Shown here one piece after another: positions 13,841 through 54,973 of a stretch of DNA of 64,000 nt. The notes beneath the pieces were generated by a model, which was given only the letters and a program-made list of their open reading frames with translations, did no database searches and was not told the origin of the DNA. A program made the translations under genes and the position numbers. The stretch is from a bacterium (GTDB lineage: Bacteria; Patescibacteriota; Patescibacteriia; UBA9570): NCBI GenBank assembly GCA_030698395.1, contig JAUYKW010000025.1, positions 68,179-132,178 of the forward strand. The letters are read 5' to 3'. How positions within the stretch are numbered: position 1 is the stretch's first letter; each line of letters starts with the position of its first letter.

Positions 13841-14149
13841 TTGTCGGTATTTGGAACCAATATGGTTCTAAACATTGGCACACTAAAGTATTCCAACTGC
13901 AGTGTGTTCGCTCATTTTTTTTCTCATCAACATTCCCTCGCTAAGTTACAATCGTTACTGGCGAATAATCTGCTGTGCTTTGGAGGAAGTACAAGTACGT
14001 TACGACGTTTAAAAGATCCCCCCCCACACACAAAGCTTCAAACTCCCTTGGATAAGGAGTTGTTGACCTACCTCTCGGCTGATCCGGCCGCATGACATCA
14101 ATCGACGGAGACGAAATTGTCTGATCACTCAAACCCTCAGGAGGTTAAC

Positions 14150-15724: not shown

Positions 15725-15871
15725 CAGCAGCTAGCAACATGATGAGAAGAACTGCGCGGATTCCGCAGTAACATTTCCCTTTCCTAGGAGGAAACGGTTA
15801 GTAGATGAATCCACTACTAACCACCCCCCTGTGCGTTTCAAAAAATGGAACATACAGGAAGGTATATAAAC

Positions 15872-37104: not shown

Positions 37105-38208
37105 ATGAAATTCTCATGTACACAAGAAAACTTGAATCGTGGGTTACAGATAGTTGGGCACATAGCTAACAGAAATGTAAACTTACCCATCTTACAAAAT
37201 GTATTGATTCAAGCTAAGGATGGAAAAATATCATTATCATCCACAAATCTAGAAATAGGAGTAAGAGTATCTATTAGAGGAAAGATAGAAGAGGAAGGAG
37301 AGTTTACATTACCAGCTCAGTTGCTTTCTAGTTATATAAATGTTCTTACTACTGAAAGAATTGATTGTATTCTAAACGGGAAAGAATTTAATATTATTGC
37401 AGATGAGCAAAACACAGTAGTAAAAGGAGAGATGGCTACTGAATTCCCAATTTTACCAGAAGTTGAAAAAGTAGAGAGTTTTATATTGAATAGAGAGTTA
37501 TTAGAAAGAGCATTGCAACAAGTTGTTATCGCTGCTTCTTTTGATGAAACTAGACCAGAAATTGCAGGAGTATTATTTGATTTCACAAATAATGAATTAA
37601 TTCTAGCTGCAACTGATAGTTATAGATTAGCAGAAAAGAAAATTCCAGTAACAAAACAAGGGAAAGAAATTAAAGTTATTCTTCCTCAACGATCAGCTCA
37701 GGAACTACTTAGGGTGATACAAGCAACAAAAGAGGAAAATGTTATTATTTATGCCTCTGAAACACAATTAGCTTGTGAGATGGGAGAAATTGAATTTGTA
37801 TCACGTGTTATTGAAGGTAACTTTCCTGATTATCACCAAATTATTCCCCAACAAGGAAATACAACAATCTCTCTTGTTTCAACAGATCTTATTACAGCTG
37901 TAAAAGGAGCTGCATTATTCTCAAAAACTGGCATAAATGATGTGAAGCTATCCTTTTCAAAGGAGGATAATACAGTGTCGATTAATGCGGTTAATGCGCA
38001 ATTGGGTGAAAATACAACCAAGCTATCTTGTGTGGTTGAAGGGCAAGATAATACCGCTGTGTTCAATTATCGATATTTATTAGATGGATTGCAACAAGTA
38101 CAAAAAGGGGAGGTTGAAATAAAAATAATTGATAGTATTAGCCCAGGTGTCTTTCGAGGTAAAAGGGATGAAACATATACGTATGTTATTATGCCAATAA
38201 AACAATAA
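37105..38208 (+). CDS. dnaN: DNA polymerase III beta subunit (sliding clamp)
   Basis: Three-domain clamp of about 367 aa immediately after dnaA. Confidence 0.85.
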   Translation: MKFSCTQENLNRGLQIVGHIANRNVNLPILQNVLIQAKDGKISLSSTNLEIGVRVSIRGKIEEEGEFTLPAQLLSSYINVLTTERIDCILNGKEFNIIADEQNTVVKGEMATEFPILPEVEKVESFILNRELLERALQQVVIAASFDETRPEIAGVLFDFTNNELILAATDSYRLAEKKIPVTKQGKEIKVILPQRSAQELLRVIQATKEENVIIYASETQLACEMGEIEFVSRVIEGNFPDYHQIIPQQGNTTISLVSTDLITAVKGAALFSKTGINDVKLSFSKEDNTVSINAVNAQLGENTTKLSCVVEGQDNTAVFNYRYLLDGLQQVQKGEVEIKIIDSISPGVFRGKRDETYTYVIMPIKQ

Positions 38209-38505: not shown

Positions 38506-41256
38506 CTAATTATTTTTATTCTTCGAAGAATTCTTATTCGAATTAGAATTAGAATTTTCGTTAGTGTTAGAAGAATTTTGATTATTAGTGTTTGAATTTG
38601 AGGTATCAACAATTTCGCCCTGCGCCATGTACGTGAAGATGATTGTATGTTCATTAGTGTTATCTCGATCATTGGTTACACGTACAGTTAATGTGTGTTT
38701 ACCATTAGTTAAGTTTGTTGGATTATATCCAGTGTTGAATGGTGGGCTGGTTTTTACATCAATAACATTTGAATCGATGATATAGGTTGTTTCTTTGATA
38801 TTTCTTCCTGTACCTGGATCAATGCTTGTTTGAATATCAAATGTAGCACTTGTTAAGCGAGCACCAACAGCAGGGTAGGTTATAGACACGGAAGGTATTT
38901 GATCAGAAGAGCGAAGATTACAATCCTCATAAGTCATTTCATCAGAAATATATTCTTCCTGGCCATTAGACCAAGCTTTTACACCAGCTTCCCAGTTATT
39001 AAACATAGGGTCGTTTTGGGGTTCGGAAGGAGCATCACCAAGAGGATCTTCTTTTGTGAGGTAGTATAAAATATTATGTACTTCTTTGAATTCACGGGTC
39101 TGTTTGAATTCTTCAGGATAAGACGAGATGCATTCATCAGGTATGATGTGTTGTGTATTTTTATCAACTATTTTTTCTACAGAAGTTCCAATTCCGCCCC
39201 ATAAAACAGCTTTATTCGCTTGTGCTGGCGGAGGAGAATTAAAACCTTCATCAGGTAATCCATCAAGAATACGTGACATATAGTCATTCATCATTGGAGC
39301 CGCAACAACTAAACCAGCCGCTCCATTGTGCATCTCAGTATTATCATTATTACCCACCCAAACTCCAGTCGCAAAAGAGGGAGTGTAACCCATAGCCCAG
39401 GCATCTCGGTAATTATTAGTTGTACCAGTTTTGGCTGCCAGGGTTCGTCCGGAAATGTTTAATGCTGTAAAACCAGCTCTAGCACTAGGATCAGATAAAA
39501 TACTATTTAGATTTTGAACCGCAACTTGATCAATGACTTGGTTTTCGGTATTGCTCCATTCATATAATACAGCACCTTTTTGATCTTCAACTTTTAAGAT
39601 GGTAGTAACAGGATGACGCACACCTTCTCGAGCAAATGTTGCAAAGGCTGAAGTGTGCTCTAACAAGGTAACTTCTCCACCTCCTAATACAAGTGCTAAA
39701 CCATATCTAGAGCGGTCTTGGAATGAGGTATAACCAAAAGATTCTGCCACATCAATTACCCTATCAACACCCACTAAATAAAGTGCTTTCACAGCTGGAA
39801 TATTTAAAGATTGACCAAGAGCCCGTCTGATAGTTACTGGACCCGAGAATCCACCGGAATAATTACTAGGAATGTAATCGCCTGAATCTGAAGTGAAGTT
39901 AGTTCTAACGTCAAATAAGATTGTATTTGGATTATAACCACTATCAAATGCAGTCATGTATACCAGGGGTTTAAAGGAAGAACCTGGTTGACGTAGGCTT
40001 GTTGCAACATTTACTTGGCCATCATAATCTTCTGAATAATAATCTTTAGAGCCAACCATTACTAATACCTGACCCGTATGTGCATCAATAGAAATAAGTG
40101 ATGCGTTACTTCCACCATATTGTTCAACTTTTCCCATGCCGTCTTGGATAACACTTTCAGCAATTTCTTGTTTGTCGAAATCTAAAGTAGTTGTTACACG
40201 AAGTCCTTGATTTATAAAAGCACCACCAAAATCATCTTCCAATTGAGACAAGACATAATCAACAAAATGAGGAGCGTCTTTAATTGCAATAGTTTGTTGG
40301 ATAGTAACGTCTTCTGTTTTTGCTGCATCAGCTTCTTCTTCTGTTATATATCCTTCTTCTACCATTCGATCAAGAGCAAAATCTTTTCGTTCATATAAAG
40401 CTTCGCGATCTTGACTGATGTAGTAAGTAGGTCTTTGAGGGATGGAGGACAATAACGCAGATTCTGCTAATGAGAGTTCAGAAGGAGTCTTGCCAAAATA
40501 ACTTTGAGAGGCAGCGGCAACACCCATATTTACACCACCGTAAGATGCTTCATTTAAGTAGAATTCTAGAATTTGATCTTTATCATATTTTCTTTCTAGT
40601 TCAACTGAAAGGATTAATTCTTTTATTTTTCGAGAATATGTTTTTTCATTTCCAACAATTGCCATTTTGACGAACTGTTGAGTTATAGTTGATCCTCCAA
40701 CTTGCTGATCAGTTGCTACATTTATTCCTGCAGAGCGGAGAATGCCAACTGGATCAAAACCTTTGTGTTCATAGAACTTTTTATCTTCTAAAGCAACAGT
40801 TGCATCAGCCATGTAAGGAGAAATATCTTCTATTTTTGTGTACGTTCGGCGAACATCTTTACCGGTCTCATAAAGTAGATGTTCTCCGGAGCGATCATAG
40901 ATTTTTGTACTCTCAGCTAGTACGCGATTTTCTAATTGATCTGGACTTGGTAAATCTTTAGCAAACCACGCAAACGCTCCAATCCCTGCTAATACTAGAA
41001 GTGCAAAACCAACAACACCAACTATGAATAAACGTAATAACCAGCGTTTCCAGCGGGGGCCACGTTTTTTTGCTAGCCTACGCTCTGCCTTACTTAATGG
41101 TTTTAGGTTTGATTTAGCAGTTGTATTATTTGAAATACTTTTATCTTTATTTGTAGGCAGAGTAGACTTTTTTTTGAATTGAGATGAGGTAGGACTAGAT
41201 TTTTTTTCTATCATAGGCTTGCGAGAGCTACTTAGTTTTTGAGTATTATTTTCCAT
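38506..41256 (-). CDS. class A penicillin-binding protein (PBP1A-type transglycosylase/transpeptidase) with Ig-like domain and Asn/Ser-rich tail
   Basis: Start set at MENNTQK (41256); GT51 motifs (GGSTITQQ, RKIKE), transpeptidase SSFKP, SxN, KTGT; C-terminal extra beta-rich domain and about 40-aa N/S low-complexity tail. Confidence 0.85.
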   Translation of the reverse strand: MENNTQKLSSSRKPMIEKKSSPTSSQFKKKSTLPTNKDKSISNNTTAKSNLKPLSKAERRLAKKRGPRWKRWLLRLFIVGVVGFALLVLAGIGAFAWFAKDLPSPDQLENRVLAESTKIYDRSGEHLLYETGKDVRRTYTKIEDISPYMADATVALEDKKFYEHKGFDPVGILRSAGINVATDQQVGGSTITQQFVKMAIVGNEKTYSRKIKELILSVELERKYDKDQILEFYLNEASYGGVNMGVAAASQSYFGKTPSELSLAESALLSSIPQRPTYYISQDREALYERKDFALDRMVEEGYITEEEADAAKTEDVTIQQTIAIKDAPHFVDYVLSQLEDDFGGAFINQGLRVTTTLDFDKQEIAESVIQDGMGKVEQYGGSNASLISIDAHTGQVLVMVGSKDYYSEDYDGQVNVATSLRQPGSSFKPLVYMTAFDSGYNPNTILFDVRTNFTSDSGDYIPSNYSGGFSGPVTIRRALGQSLNIPAVKALYLVGVDRVIDVAESFGYTSFQDRSRYGLALVLGGGEVTLLEHTSAFATFAREGVRHPVTTILKVEDQKGAVLYEWSNTENQVIDQVAVQNLNSILSDPSARAGFTALNISGRTLAAKTGTTNNYRDAWAMGYTPSFATGVWVGNNDNTEMHNGAAGLVVAAPMMNDYMSRILDGLPDEGFNSPPPAQANKAVLWGGIGTSVEKIVDKNTQHIIPDECISSYPEEFKQTREFKEVHNILYYLTKEDPLGDAPSEPQNDPMFNNWEAGVKAWSNGQEEYISDEMTYEDCNLRSSDQIPSVSITYPAVGARLTSATFDIQTSIDPGTGRNIKETTYIIDSNVIDVKTSPPFNTGYNPTNLTNGKHTLTVRVTNDRDNTNEHTIIFTYMAQGEIVDTSNSNTNNQNSSNTNENSNSNSNKNSSKNKNN

Positions 41257-41421
41257 AAAAATCAGCCTAACTATATAACATTGATAGTCTTTTGTCGAAT
41301 TAAATAACTTACAAAAATGGATATAATTAGCAAGATAATTGTTATGGTTTAAGGAGAGATAGACACAATAAATGCACATATTTTCTTGTTCTGAAAATGT
41401 GCATATGGTAGGCTGGTATTC

Positions 41422-42609: not shown

Positions 42610-43584
42610 TTACTTTTTTGCTTGAGCAATAAAAGTATCAATTTTATCGACGTAAAAAGCTTGCGCTTGTTTGATGTATTCTAGATTATCCACTTTTGCT
42701 TCTAAGGGAATTGATCCTTCATCAAATTCTTTTATGAGAGCAGTTTTTACATCATGTAAAATGCTATAAAATTTTGGTAGCCAGTAACAGACAAGTTGAA
42801 AAAAATCAGTTGAATTTTCTATTTGTTTAATAATATCATCTTGTACATCAGGAGTGCGCCAAAAGCAGAGCCACATAAAAGCAAGGTCATAATACCTACA
42901 ATTTAAATGAGCATCAGACCAATCAATAATACCAAATCCATCCTCAGGTGTTACAAGAATATTTTTTGGATTAAAGTCTCCGTGTACTAGAACGGGATTT
43001 TTTAGCCAGTCTAGAACATGATCTTGGGTGATAGAGTGACACTCTGAATATTGTTCTTCGCTTAATCCTCCAGCTAAAGCACCGGTATGATAACTTTTCA
43101 TCTTATTTGACAGCTGTTCTTGATTGATAACACTAAAACCAATTGAATCGTTTAATGACTGAGAGTTGTTTTGTAAATAATTTAGTGCTGTAATAATCGT
43201 TTCTGCCCCAATTGTGCGGACTTGTTTTGTTCCAGTATAGAAATAATACCAACCAGCGGGTTCACCTTCAACGAGTGAGTAAGCTAAACCAATAGGGTCT
43301 ATTTGATCGTAAAGAAAGACTTGCTCGGGAGCAGTAAAAGGTAAGGTAGTTTGTTCAGAAAAAAACTTATTCATTTTTGCTTCAGACAAGAACGCCTCTT
43401 TTGCTTCAGCACTTGTTTTGCGTAAGATTTTTATTATAAAGTTTTTGTTATTTTCATCATGGCATTGGACAACATGATTAGTGCCAGAGGTGCTCATTAT
43501 TAAATCTAATACTAAACCATGTTCCTGTAATATTTTATCTAGTGTTTTGAAAATTTCTTTTTCTGCTACGAATTTTTCTGTCAT
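42610..43584 (-). CDS. aminoglycoside-phosphotransferase-family (APH/protein-kinase-like) kinase
   Basis: Brenner motif HGDFNPKNILV and DWSDAHLNCRYYDLAF. Confidence 0.7.
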   Translation of the reverse strand: MTEKFVAEKEIFKTLDKILQEHGLVLDLIMSTSGTNHVVQCHDENNKNFIIKILRKTSAEAKEAFLSEAKMNKFFSEQTTLPFTAPEQVFLYDQIDPIGLAYSLVEGEPAGWYYFYTGTKQVRTIGAETIITALNYLQNNSQSLNDSIGFSVINQEQLSNKMKSYHTGALAGGLSEEQYSECHSITQDHVLDWLKNPVLVHGDFNPKNILVTPEDGFGIIDWSDAHLNCRYYDLAFMWLCFWRTPDVQDDIIKQIENSTDFFQLVCYWLPKFYSILHDVKTALIKEFDEGSIPLEAKVDNLEYIKQAQAFYVDKIDTFIAQAKK

Positions 43585-45050
43585 TAGGATAGTTTATTAT
43601 AAAGTGAAATATATTTTTTTACTGAACTGTCCCAACCAAAATCAGCAGACATCCCACTGCGCATTATCTTCTCCCATTGTTTGGGTTGGTTATGATAAAT
43701 TCGTAATGCCCGATTAATTGTACGTTGCAGAGCACTTGCTGAATAAGATGAAAATAGAAATCCATTTTTACCATCATCTATAGTATCTTTGAGGCCTCCA
43801 GTTGCTCGTACAATTGGCACAGAACCATAGCGCATGGCAATTATTTGGCTTAGGCCGCAGGGTTCATATTTAGATGGCATAAAAAATAAATCCGATCCAG
43901 CATAAATCTGTTGGCTAAAAGGAATGTCGAATTTGTTATGAAAGAAAAATTTGTTGGGGGCAATAGCAGCGGCATCAGAAAATGTTTTTTCATATTTAGG
44001 ATCACCTGTACCAGTAAAGACAAATTGTGCATCAAGAGCTAGTAGTTTGGGCAGTAATTCAATTATTAGCTCTAAACCTTTTTGGCTAGTGAGTCTGTGG
44101 ACTAAGCCAAAGAGGGGTATATTTGGATTAAGAGATAGACCAGACTTTTTTTGGAGAAAAAGTTTATTTTTCTTTTTTTTATTTAAGCTAGCGATAGAAT
44201 ATTTATATTTAATATGAGGATCTTTTAAAGGATTGAACTTATCCATATCAATTCCATTTAGAATTCCGGATAAGTCTTTTTTTCTGGCTTTAATAATATT
44301 TTCTAGACCAGAGCCAAATTCTTTTGATAAAATTTCATTTGCATAAGTTGGACTTACTGTATTAATCAGATTTGCATTATCAATTGCGACGCGAAGCATA
44401 CGAATTCCTTTTTTGCGTCGCAACTCACTACTAACACTAATACTTTTTGCGTTCCAATTGAATAATTTAAGAAGCTCAATTTTAGTATCTCCAACAACGC
44501 CCATGTTGTGGATAGTTAGTAAACATTTTATGTGACCGAGGTCAGAATCTTGTTTTAAAAGATATTGTAATCCCGCAGTATGGTAATCATTAGCATGGAG
44601 AGTGGTGACTGGTAATTTTTCTTGCTTAATAAATTGATAAACTGCATGGGAGAAAAAAAGAAAGCGCAATCGTTGCCCGGTATGAGCTGTTGCAGGACGT
44701 TTAGTTATTGGATTTGTAACTGCTGTGCCTTGATAGGCTGTACCACGACTTAAGTAATTATTGTTTTTGAATAAAAGAACTGGGATTTTAGAGTTGGGTA
44801 TATATGTTCGCCAAACAGAAACACGTTCAACTTTATTATTGACTCTAACTTGAACATTAGCGATGTGTTCAATTTTGCTCGTTGCGTTTTTTGTGACTGA
44901 TTTGTAAAACGGTAGAGCAACCCAGGTTTTATTTACATGGGGGGCAATGCCTTTGGGAAGGGCGCCTAATACATCACCGAGACCACCGGCTTTTGCTAAA
45001 GGCGCTAGTTCAGACCCAACAAATAATACGTTAAAGGGACTTTTTTTCAT
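43584..45050 (-). CDS. glgA: glycogen/starch synthase (GT5), ADP-glucose type
   Basis: N-terminal signature FVGSELAPLAKAGGLGDV (K-x-GGL motif) and GT-B C-terminal domain. Confidence 0.8.
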   Translation of the reverse strand: MKKSPFNVLFVGSELAPLAKAGGLGDVLGALPKGIAPHVNKTWVALPFYKSVTKNATSKIEHIANVQVRVNNKVERVSVWRTYIPNSKIPVLLFKNNNYLSRGTAYQGTAVTNPITKRPATAHTGQRLRFLFFSHAVYQFIKQEKLPVTTLHANDYHTAGLQYLLKQDSDLGHIKCLLTIHNMGVVGDTKIELLKLFNWNAKSISVSSELRRKKGIRMLRVAIDNANLINTVSPTYANEILSKEFGSGLENIIKARKKDLSGILNGIDMDKFNPLKDPHIKYKYSIASLNKKKKNKLFLQKKSGLSLNPNIPLFGLVHRLTSQKGLELIIELLPKLLALDAQFVFTGTGDPKYEKTFSDAAAIAPNKFFFHNKFDIPFSQQIYAGSDLFFMPSKYEPCGLSQIIAMRYGSVPIVRATGGLKDTIDDGKNGFLFSSYSASALQRTINRALRIYHNQPKQWEKIMRSGMSADFGWDSSVKKYISLYNKLS

Positions 45051-46107
45051 GCTGTTTGATTAGTTTTTTGTATACTTGTTCATAGCCATCACCCATGCGT
45101 TCTATAGAAAAATTATTTTTTACCCATTCTCGACATGCTGCTCTATCTATAGTATCAATTTTTTTAATCGCATCCCTCATTTCATCTTCATTTTTTACAA
45201 CAAAGCCAGTAACGCCATCCTTGACCAATTCTGGTACAGATCCTTTATTGAATGCTATTACAGGTGTTCCGGTAGCCATGGCCTCTACCATTACTAAACC
45301 AAACGGCTCTTCCCACTCAATGGGAAACAACAAAGCCTTGGCTTGGCCTACGAACTTTGCAATTTTCTGATGTGGAAGTTCTCCCCTGTAACTAATGAAG
45401 GAGCTTTTTAAAGCGGGGTTAATTTTTTTCTCCCAGTAATTTCTATAAATCTCACGTTGCAAGTCTGTTGAGCCGGCAAGAATTAATTTTTTACGAAGTT
45501 TTTTACATACATTAATAGCATGATGTACACCTTTTGAAGGATGAAGTCTGCCAATAAAAACAAAATGATCTTGGGGAGACTTATTAAACTTAAATTGATT
45601 CACATCAATACCATTGTAGACCACATCTGTGTATTGAATTTTTTCTTTATAATGTTTAGTTTGGGCTTTTGATATTGGAGTTATATATACATTAGAAAAA
45701 GGTATCTGCTGAACAATGTTTTGCGTTAATGGTTCAATCGGCCAATGCTGAGTCATTAATGTTGGCTTATCAACCAATGATGACATAAAAAAATGTAAGT
45801 TATCCAAATGGCTATGTAAAATATCAAATTCTTCGATATGGCGATATGCTCTATTTAGGAGCAGTAGATAAGTATAGTGCTTTAACATCCGAGCCGAGGT
45901 AGCCGGACCCTTAATACTATCTGGTGTCAAAGGATCGAGGCTTTCAATCCGAGCTCCTTTGATATTGGTTTTACTGTTACCAAATACAGTCACTTCATGT
46001 CCGCGCCGTATTTGTTCTCGGATAAGTGATGTTACTAGCAACCAACGACCACGATCTCCTTTGGGTGGTAATTGTTGGGATGGGTTTGTAATATGTGCAA
46101 TTCGCAT
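45031..46107 (-). CDS. GT4 family glycosyltransferase
   Basis: EPFGLVMVEAMATGTPVIA ... GSVPELVKDGVTGF (E-x7-E region). Confidence 0.8.
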   Translation of the reverse strand: MRIAHITNPSQQLPPKGDRGRWLLVTSLIREQIRRGHEVTVFGNSKTNIKGARIESLDPLTPDSIKGPATSARMLKHYTYLLLLNRAYRHIEEFDILHSHLDNLHFFMSSLVDKPTLMTQHWPIEPLTQNIVQQIPFSNVYITPISKAQTKHYKEKIQYTDVVYNGIDVNQFKFNKSPQDHFVFIGRLHPSKGVHHAINVCKKLRKKLILAGSTDLQREIYRNYWEKKINPALKSSFISYRGELPHQKIAKFVGQAKALLFPIEWEEPFGLVMVEAMATGTPVIAFNKGSVPELVKDGVTGFVVKNEDEMRDAIKKIDTIDRAACREWVKNNFSIERMGDGYEQVYKKLIKQHEKKSL

Positions 46108-46592
46108 TATGCTGTACGATAAATATTTTTTGTCGGATCGATTAAAAATCCTTCCATATCGCGTTTGCCGATAAGTATGGGATATAAGAGCATTTTTCTA
46201 TCAACGATACTTGCAATCGTTTCGATTTTTTTATTACGCATTTTATATTCTAGCTTAACAAAGGGCCTTACAGTTATGCCGTTTGTTGCAGGAATTACTC
46301 GGATATCATATAAACCGGGAATTTGTTTTTTTAATTTAGGAGCAAGTACTGTACGAATTTTTTTCTTGATTTCTTTAAAATTTTTGGTGGTGATTTTTAA
46401 TTTGGGCATTTCTTTATTAAATTCTTCGTATACAGAAAGAAGGCCAATTTTTTTTGCGATACTAACATCGATTGCTGTTGTTCTGGCGCCAGTATCAATC
46501 TTTGCTTGACGACGAATAAATTTTCCATTAGGAAGATAAATTTTTACTTCTTCCACTAGGCCAAGAATAGGTTTTATTTTTTTATTATTCAT
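46107..46592 (-). CDS. retropepsin-like (clan AA, putative ATP-dependent zinc protease family) protein
   Basis: AKIDTGARTTAID DTG active-site-like motif; about 160 aa; adjacent to RimK-like ligase. Confidence 0.65.
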   Translation of the reverse strand: MNNKKIKPILGLVEEVKIYLPNGKFIRRQAKIDTGARTTAIDVSIAKKIGLLSVYEEFNKEMPKLKITTKNFKEIKKKIRTVLAPKLKKQIPGLYDIRVIPATNGITVRPFVKLEYKMRNKKIETIASIVDRKMLLYPILIGKRDMEGFLIDPTKNIYRTA

Positions 46593-47987
46593 TTATTTTG
46601 TCTTTGTTGGATTAACTAAGAAGCCAGCAAGATCTCGTCTGCCAATTATTATTGGATGAGATAGTTTATTATCCATTGCAATGGCAACCTGGGTGCTGAT
46701 GTTCTTTTTTCCTAACACGAATGATAGTGAAACTTTAGGACGGATTGTATATTTGTCACCACTACGTACAGCAACTATATCAACTATATCTTCGTGTAAT
46801 CCTTTAATTGAATGTTGAAATGATTCTTCTACTTGGCGAGCATCAGATGCAGAGACTATGCTGGGTAAAACGATAGAATCAAGTGCAGTTAAGGCGTCTT
46901 GAAAACCAAGGCGACGTGCTAGGTCTTTAGAAATTGTAGTAGATGTTAAACCAGTATCAATCCGAACACGCATAGCTTGTTGTTTGTTATTACGGTCTGT
47001 AATTTCGATTGATTCGTATACACCAATAACTGCTTTATCTTCTTCGGTTTCGGTATCGTTACTAAATAAATCTTTGCATACTTTTACTCCTTTTACTACA
47101 CTGGAAATATTCAGGCCCGCTACCCTTTCTAATCTATCTCGGAGAGTTGTTTGATTTGCATTTTGAATTTCTAATCCAGGATGCGCATTTACTTCTAATA
47201 TTACTGGCCCTTGTTGTTTGTCTATCACTATGTCAACACCCGCATAACCAAGGCCGACGGCTCGTTGAGCTTCTACACTGATGCGTAGTATTTCATTCCA
47301 GTTATTAATGTGTAAACCACGGAGACTAGTATTGTAATCTGGATGTACTGTTAGTTCTCCTACGTGTTTGGATGCCGCATAAGTGGTGATGCCTGTCGTT
47401 AAATCTATACCTACGCCTATTCCTCCCATATGTAGATTGGCTTTCCCCGAGGATGATTTTGTTGGTAGGCGTAACATGGCCATTATTGGTACAGAGTTAA
47501 ATACAATTACCCGAATATCTGGAATGCCTTTATAACTTACATGTTTAAATTCTTCTGATAATTTTAAGCGTTCTTCAAAGTATGCTATATCCGGGATATT
47601 TGATATTGAATAATTACCATCTAATATATTACTAACGCGCATCATTAAATCGTCTTCTGTATAGAATTCGTTGCTCCCCCCAATCCATTGATTGTTTTTG
47701 TTTTTTCCATAAACAATAAGAATACCATTACCACCTAGACCAAAGTTTGGTTTTAATACAAAGCTTGGTGGGAGCGATGACCAATCAAATTCAAAGAGTT
47801 CACGACGATCATGAATTTCAGAAAATATTTTTGCTGTTGGCAGACCATGTTTTAATAGACGTTCTTTGGTTGCTAGTTTATTACGAGCAAGCTGAATAGA
47901 CGAACGTTTGTTATTCGGACGAATATAGCGCAAATTGCGAGCGTTCATACCAAGAACACGACTTGATTTAGCAAAGAATTCACTCAT
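46593..47987 (-). CDS. RimK-like ATP-grasp amidoligase (alpha-L-glutamate-ligase-related) fused to C-terminal retropepsin-like domain
   Basis: ATP-grasp core (VLKPNFGLGGNGILIV ... VNAHPGLEI) in first about 300 aa; C-terminal about 150 aa repeats the DTG (VRIDTGLTSTTIS) fold of the neighbouring gene. Confidence 0.7.
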   Translation of the reverse strand: MSEFFAKSSRVLGMNARNLRYIRPNNKRSSIQLARNKLATKERLLKHGLPTAKIFSEIHDRRELFEFDWSSLPPSFVLKPNFGLGGNGILIVYGKNKNNQWIGGSNEFYTEDDLMMRVSNILDGNYSISNIPDIAYFEERLKLSEEFKHVSYKGIPDIRVIVFNSVPIMAMLRLPTKSSSGKANLHMGGIGVGIDLTTGITTYAASKHVGELTVHPDYNTSLRGLHINNWNEILRISVEAQRAVGLGYAGVDIVIDKQQGPVILEVNAHPGLEIQNANQTTLRDRLERVAGLNISSVVKGVKVCKDLFSNDTETEEDKAVIGVYESIEITDRNNKQQAMRVRIDTGLTSTTISKDLARRLGFQDALTALDSIVLPSIVSASDARQVEESFQHSIKGLHEDIVDIVAVRSGDKYTIRPKVSLSFVLGKKNISTQVAIAMDNKLSHPIIIGRRDLAGFLVNPTKTK

Positions 47988-47989
47988 TG

Positions 47990-49612
47990 TTATGCGGAGG
48001 GTTTTTTAAATAATTTACGGAAACGAATATATTCAAATAAACGCAAACCAGTGAAGCGACCAAATACAAAATTAAGAACCAGAGTTAGCAATACAGCCTC
48101 AGGGTAAGCCATAATAAATGTTTCAAATACACCCCAAGTAACAATGCCGTAACTAATTATAGCCAAGACTAACGTTTCTATGGTCAATACAATTGCGGTA
48201 CGGTTGCCTTGTTCAATTTGAGCTTCTACAAATTTTTCAGTAAGAATAATCATGACTAAAATAGGAAAGATAGAAATAGTTACAATTGAGCTTCTACCTA
48301 AATAACTAGCAGCAATAAACATGATAAATATCGACAAACTAACGATTGTTAAAACTATGGCCATGCGGGGCATGTACAAAATACGTAAATATCGAACTAA
48401 TAATCTAGATACAGTTGCTACTACTAGTAATAGCAAGAATAGAACTAAACCATATTTTAATTGAGTAACTACAAAAGTTAGAGCGATAATAGATGGAACG
48501 TAGATACCAAAAGCTTTTACACCAACTATTTGTCTACCAAAGGCAATGATTGTAGCTACAATCGGTAGGATGAGTAAAAGGAATAAAGTATCTGGACTAA
48601 CACCCTGATTGATCAGATAGTTAATACCATAAGAGAAAAAATTAAACGGAGATATTGTATCTAACACTCGTTGGCTATGACGTCCAATAATTTGATAATC
48701 GATATTATTGGATTGCAAACTTGAAGTTAGAGTATCAGCTGAAGGATTGGCAAGGATGATTTCTAATGCTGGAGTAGTTGTAAGTAGTACATATTGTGGC
48801 GTGATGATGTTAAAAGTACTTTGAGCTAACCTAGCTAAAGCAGACCCTGCGGTTTTATCATCAATTCTTACGATGGCTTTCTGGCTGAAGCTAGCACTAG
48901 ATGTAGCAACATCTCCATTTGAAGAGGTAAATATTCTACCAACTTCAGATAGTGCATTTAGGCCAATATTTTTTCCGGTCCAGGTAATGATTAAATTGGC
49001 TTGAGCCAAATCTTCCTCTGACGTTACTAATTGTTCCGCAATATTTCTAGAGAGAGCATAGTTTGGATCGTTTTCATTTGTTGGTTTTACCGAAACCAAA
49101 AGAGTGCCGTGTCTTTGGGCATAGTCTTTAAGTTTTTTTAAATCATCCTTTGATACAGAATTGTCGGTAATAAGTAATACAACGTCTTTTGCGATAGAAA
49201 CTAACAATGTGTCTTTGGATACTTTTTCGCCATCAGTAACTGTTATTCTTGCTTTATACGTTCCTGGTTCAGCATAAATATGCGATGCGTCTATACCAAC
49301 AAATTGTTCCCCATCCCCAAAATCCCAAGTGTAGATTAATTTTTCATCAGTTGGACCAGTAGAACCAGATGCATCAAATACAATATTGCGTCCTACCACA
49401 CCATTTTTATCTTTGCCCGCAGATGCAGCCAATGGCGTTGCTTCGATTATTTCTTCCTCTTTCGCATTGTTCCCATCTTGAGAAGATTCAGTATTAGCAA
49501 CAACGACCTCGTCAGTAACCGGATTTTCAATAACAGTCTCTTGTGCAGAGACGTTTGGCCAAGGTGACAAGCTAAAAAGGAGAACAATAATTATCGTTAG
49601 TTGTTTTTTCAT
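47990..49612 (-). CDS. signal peptide + PKD domain + C-terminal multi-TM (7TM-like) membrane protein
   Basis: Cleavable signal MKKQLTIIIVLLFSLSPWPNVSA; PKD motif FDASGS...YTWDFGDGE...HIYAEPGTYKARITVTDG; C-terminal about 200 aa with 6-7 hydrophobic helices. Confidence 0.55.
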   Translation of the reverse strand: MKKQLTIIIVLLFSLSPWPNVSAQETVIENPVTDEVVVANTESSQDGNNAKEEEIIEATPLAASAGKDKNGVVGRNIVFDASGSTGPTDEKLIYTWDFGDGEQFVGIDASHIYAEPGTYKARITVTDGEKVSKDTLLVSIAKDVVLLITDNSVSKDDLKKLKDYAQRHGTLLVSVKPTNENDPNYALSRNIAEQLVTSEEDLAQANLIITWTGKNIGLNALSEVGRIFTSSNGDVATSSASFSQKAIVRIDDKTAGSALARLAQSTFNIITPQYVLLTTTPALEIILANPSADTLTSSLQSNNIDYQIIGRHSQRVLDTISPFNFFSYGINYLINQGVSPDTLFLLLILPIVATIIAFGRQIVGVKAFGIYVPSIIALTFVVTQLKYGLVLFLLLLVVATVSRLLVRYLRILYMPRMAIVLTIVSLSIFIMFIAASYLGRSSIVTISIFPILVMIILTEKFVEAQIEQGNRTAIVLTIETLVLAIISYGIVTWGVFETFIMAYPEAVLLTLVLNFVFGRFTGLRLFEYIRFRKLFKKPSA

Positions 49613-50112
49613 ATTTCAGCTGGATTATTCATTAAGCTGGATGTTGTTATGGCAATCGCCAAAGCATCAGCGGCATCGTCAGGCTTAGGAATGCTTTTTA
49701 GTTGGAGTATTTGTTGAGTCATATATTGAACTTGTTTCTTATCGGCTGAACCATATCCAGTGATTGCGTTTTTTACTTGTGGTGGTGTTAGTTCTACTAA
49801 CTTCGCTCCATGTTGATCGATGGCTAGTAGAATAACTCCCCGGGCATGCGAAACTGCAGAAGCAGTTTTAATATTTTTTGAGAAGAAAATTTTCTCACAG
49901 CCAACAGCAATGGGTTTGTATTTGATAAGTAATTCTGAAAGGGCATTATATATTTCTGATAAACGAGTAGAATCTGGTAATCTGGAAGCTGTTCGGATGA
50001 CTCCATACTCTAATACTTCTGGTAGTGATGACTTCTTGGAGACGCGGATAGCGCCATAGCCAGTTATTGCTGTACCTGGATCAATGCCAATAAAAATATC
50101 AGAGTTCGGCAT
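49609..50112 (-). CDS. ruvC: crossover junction endodeoxyribonuclease RuvC
   Basis: Start set at MPNSDIFIGIDPGT; catalytic IGIDPG...GYG. Confidence 0.85.
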   Translation of the reverse strand: MPNSDIFIGIDPGTAITGYGAIRVSKKSSLPEVLEYGVIRTASRLPDSTRLSEIYNALSELLIKYKPIAVGCEKIFFSKNIKTASAVSHARGVILLAIDQHGAKLVELTPPQVKNAITGYGSADKKQVQYMTQQILQLKSIPKPDDAADALAIAITTSSLMNNPAEI

Positions 50113-50800
50113 TGTGGTAAGTTTCGTCAATGTCTTCATTTTCTTCTAAGTCTGATAATAGCTTTTCAATTCTTCCTTTATCTTCTTCTTTACTGACATT
50201 TACTTTTGTTAGAGGAACTAAGTGAATTTCTGCTAGTTCAACATCATCTCCCATGGCATCTTTTACAGCATCTAAGGTTTCTGGAGATGTATATATAGTA
50301 AGACCATCATCTTCCTCAACTATATCGTCCGCACCTGCATCCATGGCTATTAATTGGAGTTCGTCCGCGCTCTTCTCAATGCGCACAATTCCCTTTTTTT
50401 GGAACAAATAATTAACAGTTCCTGGTCCACCTAGATTACCTCCAGCCTTAGATAAGGTTGTTTTAATGAACGTAGCTGTACGATTCGTGTTATCTGTAGA
50501 ACAGCGAATCATGATGGCAACACCTCCGGGACCATAACATTCATATGTAAGCTCTTCTATTAACTGTCCAGGTAATTCTCCGGCACCACGTAAAATTGCC
50601 CTTTCTATGTTGTCTTTGGGCATATTTGCAGCTTTTGCTGCATCAATTGCGGTCCGTAGGGCAGAATTCATCGATGGATCTTTACCGTTTTTGGCCGCTA
50701 AACTAATATTTTTCGATAGTTTAGTAAAAATAGCACCTTTTTTGGCGTCTGTAGCACCTTTTGCTCGCTTAATACTTGACCATTTAGAGTGTCCTGACAT
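50099..50800 (-). CDS. yebC: YebC/PmpR family transcriptional regulator
   Basis: MSGHSKWSSIKRAKGATDAKKGAIFTKL N-terminus. Confidence 0.85.
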   Translation of the reverse strand: MSGHSKWSSIKRAKGATDAKKGAIFTKLSKNISLAAKNGKDPSMNSALRTAIDAAKAANMPKDNIERAILRGAGELPGQLIEELTYECYGPGGVAIMIRCSTDNTNRTATFIKTTLSKAGGNLGGPGTVNYLFQKKGIVRIEKSADELQLIAMDAGADDIVEEDDGLTIYTSPETLDAVKDAMGDDVELAEIHLVPLTKVNVSKEEDKGRIEKLLSDLEENEDIDETYHNAEL

Positions 50801-50890: not shown

Positions 50891-51934
50891 ATGATAAATA
50901 CAGATAAAATCAAACAATTAGATAGCCAAAACATGCTTGGAAGTATTGATCAGCTTGCAAGTCAGGTAAAACATGCTTGGGATGCAGTGAAACAAATAGA
51001 AGTTCCTGAACACTACAAAGAATGTAAGAATATTGTGTTATTTGGTATGGGCGGATCAGCATTGGGCATGGATATTATTAAAGCAGTTTATTCAAACCAA
51101 ATTACTGTACCAATTCACATTCAAAATGATTATGCAGTACCTAAATTTGTAGATAAGAATTCTTTGGTAATTCTTTCTAGTTACTCCGGTACAACTGAGG
51201 AGGTTGTGGCAACTGCATCAGAAGTAGCAGAATTAACTGATCGTATTCTAGTGGTCACAACCGGTGGTAAGTTGAGTGAATTAATGGAAGAAAAGAAGTA
51301 TCCTGGATACTTAATAGAGCCGACGTTTAATCCATGTGGTCAGCCACGTATTGCTGTAGGATATGCAACAATTGGATTGCTAGGATTATTGAATAACGTT
51401 GGTTTGGTAAAATTATCAGATCAAAACATTGATGATGTTGTACATTTTTTAGAAGGCAATCGAGAATTATTGCGGGATGATGCTATGCGAGTAGCTAGTG
51501 ATACAGAGCAATATATTCCAGTATATATTGGTAGTGAATTCTTGGCTGGAAACGTTCATGTAATGTCTAATCAGACAAATGAAAATGGTAAGCACTTTTC
51601 AACCTGGAAATTAATACCAGAGTTGAATCATCACCTCTTGGAGGGATTGGAAAATCCTGCGGGCAATACGGATAAAATTAGATTTATTTTTTTAGAGTCA
51701 AATTTGTATCATGTGCGTAATCAGAAACGCTATGAAGTTACGAAGCAGGTGTTAGAAGAATTAAAAATGACATATTCAGTATTTGTACCTACTGCAAATA
51801 ATGAATTATTACAATCGTTTGAAACTTTGCAATGGGGAAGTTATTTAAGCTTTTATTTATCTGTACTAAATAACATAGATCCATCACCGATCCCTTGGGT
51901 GGATTATTTTAAGGATGCACTTAAAAAGCCGTAA
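50891..51934 (+). CDS. bifunctional phosphoglucose/phosphomannose isomerase (SIS domain, archaeal type)
   Basis: SIS motif VLFGMGGSALG and overall about 350-aa PGI/PMI layout. Confidence 0.7.
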   Translation: MINTDKIKQLDSQNMLGSIDQLASQVKHAWDAVKQIEVPEHYKECKNIVLFGMGGSALGMDIIKAVYSNQITVPIHIQNDYAVPKFVDKNSLVILSSYSGTTEEVVATASEVAELTDRILVVTTGGKLSELMEEKKYPGYLIEPTFNPCGQPRIAVGYATIGLLGLLNNVGLVKLSDQNIDDVVHFLEGNRELLRDDAMRVASDTEQYIPVYIGSEFLAGNVHVMSNQTNENGKHFSTWKLIPELNHHLLEGLENPAGNTDKIRFIFLESNLYHVRNQKRYEVTKQVLEELKMTYSVFVPTANNELLQSFETLQWGSYLSFYLSVLNNIDPSPIPWVDYFKDALKKP

Positions 51935-53453
51935 AGGAGAAATTGCCTTCTATACGGCAGTAGCTTTATTTAGCGGGATTTACTTTAGTATTTTGCAATG
52001 GCCAAGTAGCTTTGCTGATCCTGATTCTTTTTATCACGCAAGGATAATTCAGCAGATTTCTGAGCATGGATTACTCTATGCATTTCCTTGGCTCCAAGCT
52101 ACAACGCTTGCAGAAAAGTTTACAGATCATCATTTGTTGTATCATTTATTCTTGGTTCCATTCACGACCGTGCTAGATCCTGCAACTGCAGTCAAAGCCG
52201 GGCAGGTGGTGTTACTAGTAATTTTATCATTAGTTCTAGTATCTATATTACGGCGTTGGAAGTTGTCTTATAGTTGGGCCGCTTTGTTCATACTCTATAC
52301 AATTTCACCTTTTGTAGTACGGATAAATTTAGTTAAAGCAACAGCTTTGGCGATGATTATTTTGTTAGGTATTTTTATTTTATTGTTAGAAAGAAAATAT
52401 GGTTTAGTGGCACTATTGACTGTGGCTTATACCTGGGCGCATGGTGGATTTATATTGGCATGGTTAGTTGCTATGATGATTTGGCTGGCAGACATTGTTA
52501 CACAATCTATAAAACGAAAAAGAATTTATTTTGAAGATCCACGGGGTGTGATAATGGTTACGTTGGGCATTATAGCGGGCATAATAATAAATCCATATTT
52601 TCCACAAAACTTATTTTTTTTCTGGGAACAAGTTGTTCAGATCGGTTTCATTAATTATCAAGAAGTTATAGAGGTAGGAGGTGAATGGTATCCATTTGCG
52701 CTCGATCAGTTAACGGGGTTACTTAGTATTTTGCTTATTGCCGTATTGTTAGCCTGTATGATTTTTGTGTGGCAAAGAAAGAAATACTTTACAGACATCA
52801 AAGCAGTTAGCTTATTGTTTATAGCGATAATGTTCTTTTTTGCAACTTTACGCTCACGGCGTAATGTAGAGTATTTGGTTCCATTTTTGTGGTTGTGGAC
52901 ATGTTATTTGGTTTTGCCCTATCTAGAATCAGGAGCTTGGAAGGTTCATCTTAAAAAGCTAAAGCAACAATTAGGAAAGGTGTTTACAGTATTAGCTGTT
53001 TATTTACTAATTGTTATTCCGCTGGCATCAATTAAAAATGTATTTGAAGCACAAGAAGATTTAAGTGAGGGCATTGATTTGTCCACTTATCAGGCAGCTG
53101 GGGAGTATATGAAAGAAAACATCCCTGTGAATACAAATATATTTCACACACAATGGGATGAGTTTCCTATGTTGTATTATCAGAATTCGAATAATTATTA
53201 TTTAGTAGGACTCGATGCAACATTTATGTATTTAGATGACGCTGACAAATATCGGCGCTGGCGAGAGATATCCGAAGGCAATGTAAAAGAGCATTTATCT
53301 ACAATAATAAATGAAGAGTTCAATTCATCATATGTTTTTATAGGGCGTTCTACAAAAAGTTCTCAGTTGCTTGATGCATATTTGTTTCGTGATCCAGAAG
53401 TAATCCTTGAATACGAAGATGAATATACGAGGATATATAATCTAGGCACATGA
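51915..53453 (+). CDS. GT-C-fold-like polytopic membrane glycosyltransferase candidate, paralog 1
   Basis: About 11 TM helices; first extracytoplasmic loop motif ADPDSFYHARI (acidic-aromatic loop reminiscent of STT3 FDPYFNYR / ArnT-PMT DE loop); C-terminal soluble domain. Confidence 0.45.
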   Translation: MHLKSRKGEIAFYTAVALFSGIYFSILQWPSSFADPDSFYHARIIQQISEHGLLYAFPWLQATTLAEKFTDHHLLYHLFLVPFTTVLDPATAVKAGQVVLLVILSLVLVSILRRWKLSYSWAALFILYTISPFVVRINLVKATALAMIILLGIFILLLERKYGLVALLTVAYTWAHGGFILAWLVAMMIWLADIVTQSIKRKRIYFEDPRGVIMVTLGIIAGIIINPYFPQNLFFFWEQVVQIGFINYQEVIEVGGEWYPFALDQLTGLLSILLIAVLLACMIFVWQRKKYFTDIKAVSLLFIAIMFFFATLRSRRNVEYLVPFLWLWTCYLVLPYLESGAWKVHLKKLKQQLGKVFTVLAVYLLIVIPLASIKNVFEAQEDLSEGIDLSTYQAAGEYMKENIPVNTNIFHTQWDEFPMLYYQNSNNYYLVGLDATFMYLDDADKYRRWREISEGNVKEHLSTIINEEFNSSYVFIGRSTKSSQLLDAYLFRDPEVILEYEDEYTRIYNLGT

Positions 53454-54973
53454 AACGATTATTGTCGAAAGATCATTTAATATTATACTTACTCACTAGT
53501 AGTATATTTGTTTTATTTTTATTTAATCAGTATTCATCCGTGTTAGCAGATCCGGATTCCTTTTATCATATGAAAATGGCACAGTTGTTGTTGGATCAAG
53601 GAATAATTAAGGATTTTATATGGTTACCATACACTACTTTAAGTGAACATTTTGTTAATCAGCATTTATTGTTTCATGTATTATTAGCACCATTTGTTAC
53701 GTGGGGAAATCCATTTTTGGGTGTAAAATTATTTACGGCGTTATTAGGTACAACTGCAATCATTAGTATTGCGTTATTGCTACGAAGTTTAAAGTTGCGT
53801 TGGTGGCTTTTGGCAACAGTTATTTTAACGCTTACTGTTACCTTTACATTTCGATTGAACTTAGTAAAAGCATCGCCACTGTCGATGATATTGTTGTGCG
53901 TGGTAATTTGGTGTTTGATAAAAAAAAGAAATTGGTTATTAGCGGTTACGAGCATGGTTTTTGTGTGGAGCTATGGGGGCTTTTTTCTTGTTATCCCAGT
54001 TGTTTGTATTTGGATAATTGCTAATGCAAAAAAAGCTTTATGGAAAAAACCTGGTATATTTAAAAACCTAATAATTTTAATAAGACCACTATTGGCTGCT
54101 TGTGGGGGTATAATAATTGGATTACTTTTTAACCCATACTTTCCTGATAATTTATATTTTTATTGGGAGCAGGTAGTACAAATTGGAATTATAAATTACG
54201 GAGATAGTATCGGCGTGGGCGGTGAGTGGTATTCATATTATCCTCACGAATTATTTATTGGTTCTTTATGGCTTACTTTTATATTTGGCGGAGCATTGTT
54301 TTTTAAAATCATAAATCGGTTAAAGTGGAAAGAGTTGGATTGGTTTGTACTTGGTTTGTCTATTTTTGGAATGTTGTTAACATTTAAATCACGGCGCTAT
54401 GTGGAGTATTTTGGTCCGTTTACAATTCTTGCTGCGGCTACTTGGTTGAATGAGTTAAAAACTGATTCATTAAAACGTTTGATAAAAAGCGATATGCCAT
54501 TGAGAAAGATGGTAATGTGCTTACTACTAACAGCTTTTTTGGTTATTAGTGTTGTTCCGATAATTCTCCATGATAGCATTACTAACGCCAGTGATGTACG
54601 TGAGGGTTATTCGATTACACAATATAAGGATGCTAGTGAATGGTTGAGCATAAATGCAGTTCCGGGTAGCAATGTGATGCATAGTGATTGGGATGATTTT
54701 CCCATGTTGTTTTACTACAATAGCAATGTTAATTATATGGCCGGCTTAGATCCAACATTTATGTATCGTTATAATGAAGATCTGTATTGGATGTGGGTAG
54801 AGATTACCCTTGGTACTTATAAAGGAGATTTAGGAGATGCCCTATCTAAGCTAAATGTAAAGTACATTTTTATTGAAAGTAATCATACGGAAATGTATAA
54901 CTTATTTAATGAATATAAAAAAGTAAAACTTATTTATACTGATGAAGAAGCTGACATTTTTGTAGTACTGTAG
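53450..54973 (+). CDS. GT-C-fold-like polytopic membrane glycosyltransferase candidate, paralog 2
   Basis: Same architecture and motif (ADPDSFYHMKM; shared NPYFP, WEQVVQIG, VGGEWY, DDFPMLFY); tandem paralog of 51915..53453. Confidence 0.45.
   Translation: MKRLLSKDHLILYLLTSSIFVLFLFNQYSSVLADPDSFYHMKMAQLLLDQGIIKDFIWLPYTTLSEHFVNQHLLFHVLLAPFVTWGNPFLGVKLFTALLGTTAIISIALLLRSLKLRWWLLATVILTLTVTFTFRLNLVKASPLSMILLCVVIWCLIKKRNWLLAVTSMVFVWSYGGFFLVIPVVCIWIIANAKKALWKKPGIFKNLIILIRPLLAACGGIIIGLLFNPYFPDNLYFYWEQVVQIGIINYGDSIGVGGEWYSYYPHELFIGSLWLTFIFGGALFFKIINRLKWKELDWFVLGLSIFGMLLTFKSRRYVEYFGPFTILAAATWLNELKTDSLKRLIKSDMPLRKMVMCLLLTAFLVISVVPIILHDSITNASDVREGYSITQYKDASEWLSINAVPGSNVMHSDWDDFPMLFYYNSNVNYMAGLDPTFMYRYNEDLYWMWVEITLGTYKGDLGDALSKLNVKYIFIESNHTEMYNLFNEYKKVKLIYTDEEADIFVVL

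Follow-up and report, generated by a model that had tools for sequence, protein, structure and literature searches.

The module described here lies in a stretch of 64,000 nucleotides from contig JAUYKW010000025.1 of a Patescibacterium, which is referred to throughout as the window. An earlier note, written from the sequence of the window alone, had placed a three-gene module at positions 46107-49612, and three consecutive open reading frames (ORFs) on the minus strand, termed P1, P2 and P3, occupy exactly this span with tight junctions. The stop codon of the gene ruvC and the start codon of P1 overlap in ATGA, 2 nt lie between P1 and P2 (TAA-CA-ATG) and none between P2 and P3 (TAA-ATG); the GC content of the module, about 0.36, is the same as that of the remaining window. 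As the earlier note had recognised, P2 is an ATP-grasp ligase with a C-terminal retropepsin-like domain bearing a DTG motif, P3 is a second, standalone retropepsin-like protein and P1 is a PKD-domain protein with a signal-like N-terminal segment and a seven-transmembrane (7TM) C terminus. Its proposed homology to a system of ATP-grasp, clan AA peptidase and 7TM_transglut proteins is likewise borne out by family matches in all three proteins (Table 1). The module is the version of the rloABC system found in Patescibacteria (the candidate phyla radiation, CPR), with ligase and peptidase fused; that is, a new architecture of a known family and not a categorically new system.

In Pseudomonas aeruginosa, the rlo operon comprises rloA, which codes for a secreted retropepsin-like peptidase, rloB, which codes for a 7TM protein whose transglutaminase domain is inactive, and rloC, which codes for an ATP-grasp protein; crystal structures of RloA have been reported by Lormand et al. 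(mBio 2025, PMC12239564). RloA cleaves stretches of at least eight glutamates, an activity for which K46, D48, R114 and R137 are needed, and Pseudomonas mutants show altered cell shape together with sensitivity to beta-lactams and to hypo-osmotic conditions (PMC12239564). A triple rloA mutant has osmotic, antibiotic, biofilm and shape defects, and these are suppressed when either rloB or rloC is deleted (PMC12239564), which argues that RloB and RloC make something that the peptidase must remove. The families of this operon are clustered in our module too, namely a 7TM_transglut protein, a ligase of the ATPgrasp_ST/TIGR02291 type and a PF05618 peptidase. However, P1 lacks the transglutaminase-like domain of RloB and carries a PKD domain and an orphan alpha/beta domain instead, while most CPR relatives carry nothing at this position. 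In contrast to the periplasmic RloA, the peptidases of the module have no signal peptide, one of them is fused to the ligase, and both are predicted to be cytoplasmic. Whereas 96% of RloB hits fall within the Proteobacteria (PMC12239564), the host of the module is a monoderm-like Patescibacterium. The statement in the earlier note that no member of the system had been characterised is outdated in view of the work on RloA and the suppressor genetics of rloB and rloC (PMC12239564) and on RimB and RimK (PMC11957791), although it still holds for the biochemistry of the RloC ligase and of the 7TM protein RloB. Our literature searches, which did not cover a 2009 paper by Iyer et al., turned up no account of the system in CPR bacteria, in fused form or without the transglutaminase. 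In Mol Biosyst in 2009, Iyer, Abhiman, Burroughs and Aravind reportedly predicted a membrane-associated amidoligase system of ATP-grasp, 7TM-inactive-transglutaminase and peptidase proteins, which is said to be the source of PF14397 and PF14402; the same Pfam families are found in our module.

Table 1. Genes and domains of the module and neighbouring genes, with positions in the window.
Feature	Position	Strand	Description
P1	47990-49612	-	540 aa; RloB-like membrane protein
PKD domain of P1 (aa 58-141)	49190-49441	-	PKD_4 at residues 58-134, E = 2.8e-19
Orphan alpha/beta ectodomain of P1 (aa 143-320)	48653-49186	-	AlphaFold2 model
7TM_transglut-type domain of P1 (aa 322-540)	47993-48649	-	PF14402, RloB model, hydropathy
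P2	46593-47987	-	464 aa; RloC-like ATP-grasp ligase fused to a retropepsin-like domain
ATP-grasp ligase domain of P2 (aa 17-291)	47115-47939	-	ATPgrasp_ST/TIGR02291 type
Fused retropepsin-like domain of P2 (aa 318-464)	46596-47036	-	motif R-x-DTGL
P3	46107-46592	-	161 aa; standalone retropepsin-like peptidase
yebC	50099-50800	-	upstream of ruvC and P1
ruvC	49609-50139	-	directly upstream of P1
GT4 glycosyltransferase	45031-46107	-	downstream of P3; Pfam
GlgA-like gene	43584-45050	-	downstream; Pfam
APH-type kinase	42610-43584	-	downstream; Pfam
tyrS		+	between the APH-type kinase and the class A PBP; Pfam
Class A PBP (penicillin-binding protein)	38506-41379	-	downstream, past tyrS; Pfam

The ligase domain of P2 matches ATPgrasp_ST (PF14397) over residues 17-289 with an E-value of 2.1e-64 (217.9 bits against a cut-off of 31.4). 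Its best NCBIfam match is TIGR02291, 'alpha-L-glutamate ligase-like' (E = 1.6e-78), and since the score of 263.9 bits lies below the trusted cut-off of 314.2, we regard P2 as a member of this family and not as an equivalog. The RimK models fit much less well, with 71.6 bits on the family model TIGR00768 (cut-off 143.4) and 29.4 bits on the S6 ligase equivalog PRK10446 (cut-off 331), and the alignment with RimK begins at RimK residue 87, such that the RimK N-domain (Rimk_N) is absent. The ATP-binding residues on which the reading in the earlier note depended are present: D252, E265 and N267 align with the Mg-ATP ligands D248, E260 and N262 of RimK and are invariant in 50 diverse homologues, as are K79, the glycines of the Gly-rich loop (G83, G85, G86 and G88), E138, R140, R159 and N184. 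Judged from these residues, the ATP-grasp active site is intact and predicted to be catalytically competent. In the AlphaFold2 (AF2) model of P2, which has a mean predicted local distance difference test score (pLDDT) of 87, the best fold matches of the ligase domain are RimK, cyanophycin synthetase (CphA) and LysX/ArgX, all of which extend peptide or amino-acid chains. An N-terminal hydrophobic stretch was not seen in either P2 or P3 on reading the sequences, for which no signal-peptide predictor was used. From the lack of signal peptides and the need for ATP, ligase and peptidase are both predicted to be cytoplasmic.

P1 begins with a hydrophobic, signal-peptide-like segment, followed by a disordered linker, the PKD domain, the alpha/beta domain and the 7TM region, and ends in a tail rich in Lys and Arg, as judged by hydropathy and loop charge; the mean pLDDT of its AF2 model is 81.5. 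Homologues with this architecture, of about 505-560 aa, occur in metagenome-assembled genomes (MAGs) of the Kerfeld-, Falkow- and Kuenenbacteria type. The PKD domain, predicted to be extracellular, finds its best Foldseek matches in the PKD domains of clostridial collagenases (target-normalised template-modelling scores of 0.76-0.85). While the earlier note identified the PKD and 7TM parts correctly, it made no mention of the alpha/beta domain between them, which is modelled as six alternating beta-alpha units with pLDDT mostly 82-92. This domain has no Pfam match, and a Foldseek search returned no convincing fold for it or for the 7TM region in the Protein Data Bank (PDB), giving only PKD matches and poor alpha/beta ones with high root-mean-square deviations; in the model, its secondary-structure pattern is unlike that of the transglutaminase/papain fold. 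A phmmer search of 1.84 billion representatives found it in just 56 proteins, one of which, a 2395-aa repeat protein, was taken as noise, and the full-length carriers of about 500-550 aa share the PKD-alpha/beta-7TM layout with the domain at the same position. It is therefore best described as an orphan domain of the P1 family.

The earlier note would also have failed if the C terminus of P1 did not belong to the 7TM family, and here the match to PF14402 passes the Pfam threshold comfortably (residues 342-534, E = 2.4e-31, 109.5 bits against a cut-off of 25). The NCBIfam RloB model is matched over its positions 292-507 (E = 1.6e-23), leaving positions 1-291 unmatched, and no transglutaminase-like domain was detected in P1 with Pfam at E <= 0.1. 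The tail past the last helix contains six Lys/Arg residues, on account of which the C terminus should be cytoplasmic and the N-terminal domains should lie outside. We also considered this C terminus as an acceptor of the RimK style and rejected it, as the final residues lack both acidic character and conservation.

We assessed how widely the module occurs by scanning one genome per species, which yielded at least 595 stretches encoding a relative of P2. The best 80 were kept as loci and, together with six fetched earlier and the window, make up 87 loci, near-duplicates included, whose ORFs were called mechanically and annotated by BLAST against the proteins of the window and of the loci. Nearly the whole of P2 is covered in all of the best 80, which are mostly labelled as Moran-, Falkow-, Kuenen-, Kerfeld-, Dojka-, Parcu- or Paceibacteria; in a separate set of the best 120 protein clusters the fusion is likewise full-length, and the named ones are mostly Kerfeld-, Falkow- and Kuenenbacteria and 'Patescibacteria group' MAGs. 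The fusion of ligase and peptidase is thus the standard form across Patescibacteria and no local oddity. The earlier note, which described a variant architecture, was right about the fusion itself. Several records (L007, L008, L015-L017, L020, L024 and others) are labelled as Gammaproteobacteria, Bdellovibrionales, Micavibrio, Bathyarchaeia or Fimivivens. These MAGs show the synteny typical of Patescibacteria and encode proteins 43-66% identical, and we therefore regard their labels as unreliable, probably taxonomic mislabels from automated MAG submissions.

In these loci the 7TM gene lies directly upstream of the fusion gene and on the same strand in 87/87. Only 18 of the partner 7TM proteins are long (470-546 aa), whereas the other 69 are short (214-250 aa) and consist of the 7TM region without an ectodomain. 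The constant core is hence the 7TM protein together with the ligase-peptidase fusion, and the PKD and alpha/beta ectodomain is an accretion in lineages of the Kerfeld, Falkow and Kuenen type. The idea in the earlier note that the transglutaminase had been replaced by a PKD domain is correct insofar as no transglutaminase domain was detected, but it is too simple, given that most partners have no ectodomain and that the long form adds the orphan alpha/beta domain as well. Eight residues are invariant in the short and long forms alike: E459 and E479 are embedded in the membrane and R360, R416, R524, E527 and R530 lie at helix ends or in the tail, the eighth being N514. The cytoplasmic tail carries the conserved motif G-L-R-L-x-E-Y-x-R-F-R.

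Around this core, RuvC is encoded upstream of the pair in 57 of the 65 loci with enough flanking sequence, the gene for a class A PBP follows at a distance of up to about 6 kb in 53/60, and one to three extra ATP-grasp genes stand between the pair and the PBP in 32/60 (e.g., L001-L004, L010 and L012). By NCBIfam these extra ligases are either RimK-family-like (about 127-129 bits, cut-off 143) or resemble the cyanophycin-synthetase G domain or GshB, and on these matches the assignment as D-Ala-D-Ala ligases (Ddl) suggested by Pfam was rejected. The array of extra ligases, which comes after the module in most other lineages of Patescibacteria, is absent from the window's clade, where P3 and the GT4, GlgA and kinase genes are found instead; about 12 of the 87 loci have a GT4 glycosyltransferase gene next to the module. 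Unusually long ligase genes were seen in L028, L030, L083 and L086, with RimK-like ORFs of about 592-594 aa and, in L083, an 800-aa fusion version; as mechanically called ORFs, these suggest further domain fusions in the gene neighbourhood of the module.

The two peptidase domains of the window differ in what they have retained. P3 passes the cut-off of PF05618 (30.9 against 27 bits), and its best model is RloA3 (E = 1.1e-8). The RloA structures mentioned above are probably those with PDB entries 9g58 and 9g59, which both peptidase domains of the module match. P3 displays the canonical motif A-K-I-DTGA together with R109 and R132, and an alignment to 9g58, read alongside the published residues (PMC12239564), equates K31, D33, R109 and R132 of P3 with K46, D48, R114 and R137 of RloA. 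P3 hence keeps both the catalytic and the poly-Glu-binding residues of RloA. Its homologues form about 65 clusters, nearly all at least 50% identical and many of them sharing contigs with close homologues of P2; DTGA is present in 62/62 of those aligned, and P3 and 61 homologues, as read from their sequences, have short polar N termini right before the first beta-strand.

The fused domain of P2 gives weak library matches of 17-19 bits. It is nevertheless a paralogue of P3 (27% identity, E = 7e-20), and its profile matches the RloA structure 9g58 with an E-value of 2.9e-5. The DTG is kept, the next residue is Leu, and Asp439 takes the place of the substrate-binding Arg equivalent to R137. The earlier note had seen DTG in both copies, which is the case (DTGL in P2 and DTGA in P3), but the two are not equivalent, as becomes clear when the best 120 protein clusters are divided into the 51 fusion proteins closest to the window (clade A) and the other 69 (clade B), which come from lineages that have no standalone copy. 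Two positions before the catalytic Asp, clade A has L, R or K, whereas clade B has K in 68/69; the catalytic motif is DTGA in all 69 proteins of clade B, while in clade A it is DTG followed by L, I, M, F or Y, with 11 proteins reading DTS, ETG, DTA or NTD; and the residue equivalent to R137 is Asp or Asn in clade A and Arg in 69/69 of clade B. By sequence, then, the fused domain in the window's clade has lost its substrate-binding signature while the domain itself is still conserved.

Among the loci, the fused motif is changed (DTGL and Asp439) in five of the seven that have a standalone copy and is non-canonical in only one of the 80 that lack it. The two remaining loci with a standalone copy, L009 and L051, have canonical motifs in both copies, from which it follows that duplication preceded the change of motif. 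P3 arose by duplication of the peptidase domain and occurs in just a few lineages; it is slightly closer to the fused domains of clade B (31%) than the fused domains of clade A are (29.5%). We considered whether the fused peptidase might be a decaying remnant. This was rejected, as its conservation relative to the ligase domain is the same as in the canonical clades (identity in the fused and the ligase domain of 0.50 versus 0.66 in clade A and 0.44 versus 0.60 in clade B).

The pairing of a cytoplasmic ATP-grasp ligase with a retropepsin-like peptidase, up to and including their fusion, is shared with RimK, RimB and the RimB-RimK hybrid. RimB cleaves poly-Glu and stimulates RimK approximately fourfold (Little et al., JBC 2025, PMC11957791). 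The natural hybrid, RimBK, in which the peptidase is N-terminal, is active, and 2.8% of the rimBK-carrying genomes surveyed encode the hybrid plus an extra free copy of the peptidase (PMC11957791), which is the arrangement found in the window. Despite this likeness, the P2 ligase belongs to a different ATP-grasp family and lacks Rimk_N, its peptidase domain is C-terminal rather than N-terminal, and the module has an obligatory 7TM partner. P3 scores 16.2 bits on the RimB equivalog NF052261, the cut-off of which is 200.

The reading that we favour, and to which we give a probability of about 0.55, is that the module is a membrane-docked poly-alpha-amino-acid ligase, the amino acid probably being Glu, that acts on the envelope and has its product trimmed on the cytoplasmic side. 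We propose this function from sequence and by analogy. In such a mechanism, the ligase would dock on the cytoplasmic face of the 7TM protein and build an alpha-linked acidic chain, most likely poly-alpha-L-glutamate, which might stay unattached or be joined to an acceptor that the 7TM protein handles. A dimer of the retropepsin module would trim or release the chain in the cytoplasm and, by analogy with RimB, may also stimulate the ligase. The 7TM protein, with its conserved intramembrane residues Glu459 and Glu479, would then convey either the product or a signal through the membrane to the envelope and in this way affect wall homeostasis. In the window's clade, the two RimB-like roles could be divided, P3 being the protease and the fused domain serving as a scaffold or activator of the ligase or as the inactive half of a P2-P3 heterodimer. 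The envelope link is inferred from the gene neighbourhood, that is the PBP, the extra ligases and the GT4 gene, and from the Pseudomonas phenotypes.

A number of points weigh against this mechanism. All NCBIfam Rlo models score far under their cut-offs, with 17-35 bits on the RloA, RloA2 and RloA3 models (cut-offs 210-280) and 83 bits for P1 on the RloB model (cut-off 900). Glutamate is deduced solely from the peptidase signature and the kinship with RimK. The Pseudomonas peptidase is periplasmic whereas the one here is cytoplasmic, so the step that is acted on may differ. Since the linkage to ruvC and yebC (57/65) is equally strong, the linkage to the PBP may reflect gene order inherited within a group of related genomes and not functional coupling. 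Neither an acidic C-terminal acceptor nor a small precursor gene was seen in the module, the transport role of the 7TM protein is pure inference, and the relative orientation of the two domains of P2 is uncertain (predicted template modelling score of the model 0.64, with pLDDT below 50 for the linker 311-316).

It is possible, if doubtful, that the ligase decorates an envelope polymer instead, attaching a single amino acid or a small number of them, which need not be Glu, to a precursor of peptidoglycan or to a glycopolymer of the surface, with the 7TM protein presenting or flipping the lipid-linked substrate. ATP-grasp ligases that decorate wall precursors exist, for instance the D-aspartate ligase of Enterococcus, and the Pfam name of the family, 'sugar-transfer associated ATP-grasp', agrees with such a role, as do the class A PBP downstream in most loci and the conserved acidic residues embedded in the membrane in the 7TM core. 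The GT4 gene directly after the module, here and in about a dozen related loci, and the GlgA-like and kinase genes that also follow here point the same way. However, these glycosyltransferase neighbours are not conserved between clades, structurally the ligase domain is closest to ligases that extend chains, and the basic poly-Glu-binding residues that the peptidase shares with RloA and RimB are better suited to a polyanionic chain than to a single residue. Somewhat less probable still, and on balance unlikely, is that the 7TM protein is a receptor whose ectodomain senses the envelope or a host surface and switches a cytoplasmic ligase and peptidase acting on a cytoplasmic target. The ectodomain is variable and swappable on a constant 7TM core (it is PKD and alpha/beta here and transglutaminase-like in Proteobacteria, and most CPR proteins have none), the Lys/Arg-rich cytoplasmic tail is conserved and could dock the ligase, and ligase and peptidase are both predicted to be cytoplasmic here. 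Yet 69 of the 87 partner proteins lack an ectodomain that could do the sensing, and the secreted peptidases of Pseudomonas place the substrate outside the cytoplasm.

The least probable of the alternatives, which we consider very unlikely, is that the module represents poly-glutamylation of ribosomal protein S6 of the RimK/RimB type with the 7TM gene as an accidental neighbour. Such a system would account for the relationship of the ligase to RimK and of the peptidases to RimB, for the predicted cytoplasmic location of both enzymes, as for RimK and RimB, and for the precedent of the RimB-RimK hybrid. It is at odds with the domain order of P2, which is opposite to that of RimBK, with the missing RimK N-domain and with the scores of P2, which reaches 71.6 bits on the RimK family and about 29 on the S6 ligase compared with 264 on TIGR02291. 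The 7TM gene is, moreover, adjacent in every locus examined, and in many CPR lineages separate RimK-family-like genes adjoin the module.

In Pseudomonas, tolerance of osmotic conditions, sensitivity to beta-lactams, the formation of biofilms and the shape of the cell all depend on the rlo operon, and the CPR form provides natural experiments on the product of RloB and RloC. The fusion argues for both enzymes working on one molecule, and the transglutaminase-less and mostly ectodomain-less 7TM partners show the 7TM core to be the indispensable part. Duplication, followed by the loss of substrate binding in the fused copy, hints at a second, non-proteolytic role of the peptidase domain, as reported for RimB. 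The module belongs to the envelope-linked gene pairs that are conserved in this phylum despite its much reduced genomes, which suggests importance for the cell surface. A bolder version of our mechanism, which we hold to be rather improbable, is an ancient, near-universal Patescibacteria machine in which a cytoplasmic poly-alpha-amino-acid chain is threaded through the RloB-type 7TM protein and placed onto the wall next to the class A PBP. If this were true, the 7TM_transglut domain would represent a new type of translocase for peptides or polymers, the fusion would serve as a Rosetta stone for the function of RloB and RloC in Pseudomonas and Vibrio, and the window's clade would show an obligate homodimeric retropepsin becoming an active/inactive heterodimer, reminiscent of the path by which pepsin is proposed to have arisen from retropepsin.

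Two other explanations of the locus were considered and rejected. A mobile element or defence island was set aside because of the conserved core synteny (yebC-ruvC ... PBP, near dnaA and dnaN) and the genome-like GC content, and a precursor-peptide system of the graspetide type, or of any other class of ribosomally synthesised and post-translationally modified peptide, because of the lack of intergenic space or a small ORF in the module. A scan for promoters and terminators found sites no commoner than in shuffled sequence (37 observed versus 41 expected); the best promoter-like site lies upstream of yebC, which weakly suggests that transcription starts there. The genes dnaA (35442-36839, plus strand) and dnaN (37105-38208, plus strand) lie just past the PBP gene, about 8 kb from the module, and a replication origin is therefore probably close to this region.

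The region 51915-54973 holds a tandem pair of paralogous genes for large polytopic membrane proteins of 512 and 507 aa. The first of them has no Pfam match, and homologues are found at the same position in related loci. Further away, the window contains a GC island at 14100-15800, with a GC content of 0.61-0.67 against 0.33-0.41 in the flanks. It is occupied by one ORF (14117-15724, plus strand, 535 aa) for a class I/II aminotransferase (Pfam, E = 2.8e-23), situated between genes for an NTP-transferase and a glutamate dehydrogenase, and looks like either a single gene acquired recently from a donor of high GC content or a chimera of the assembly.

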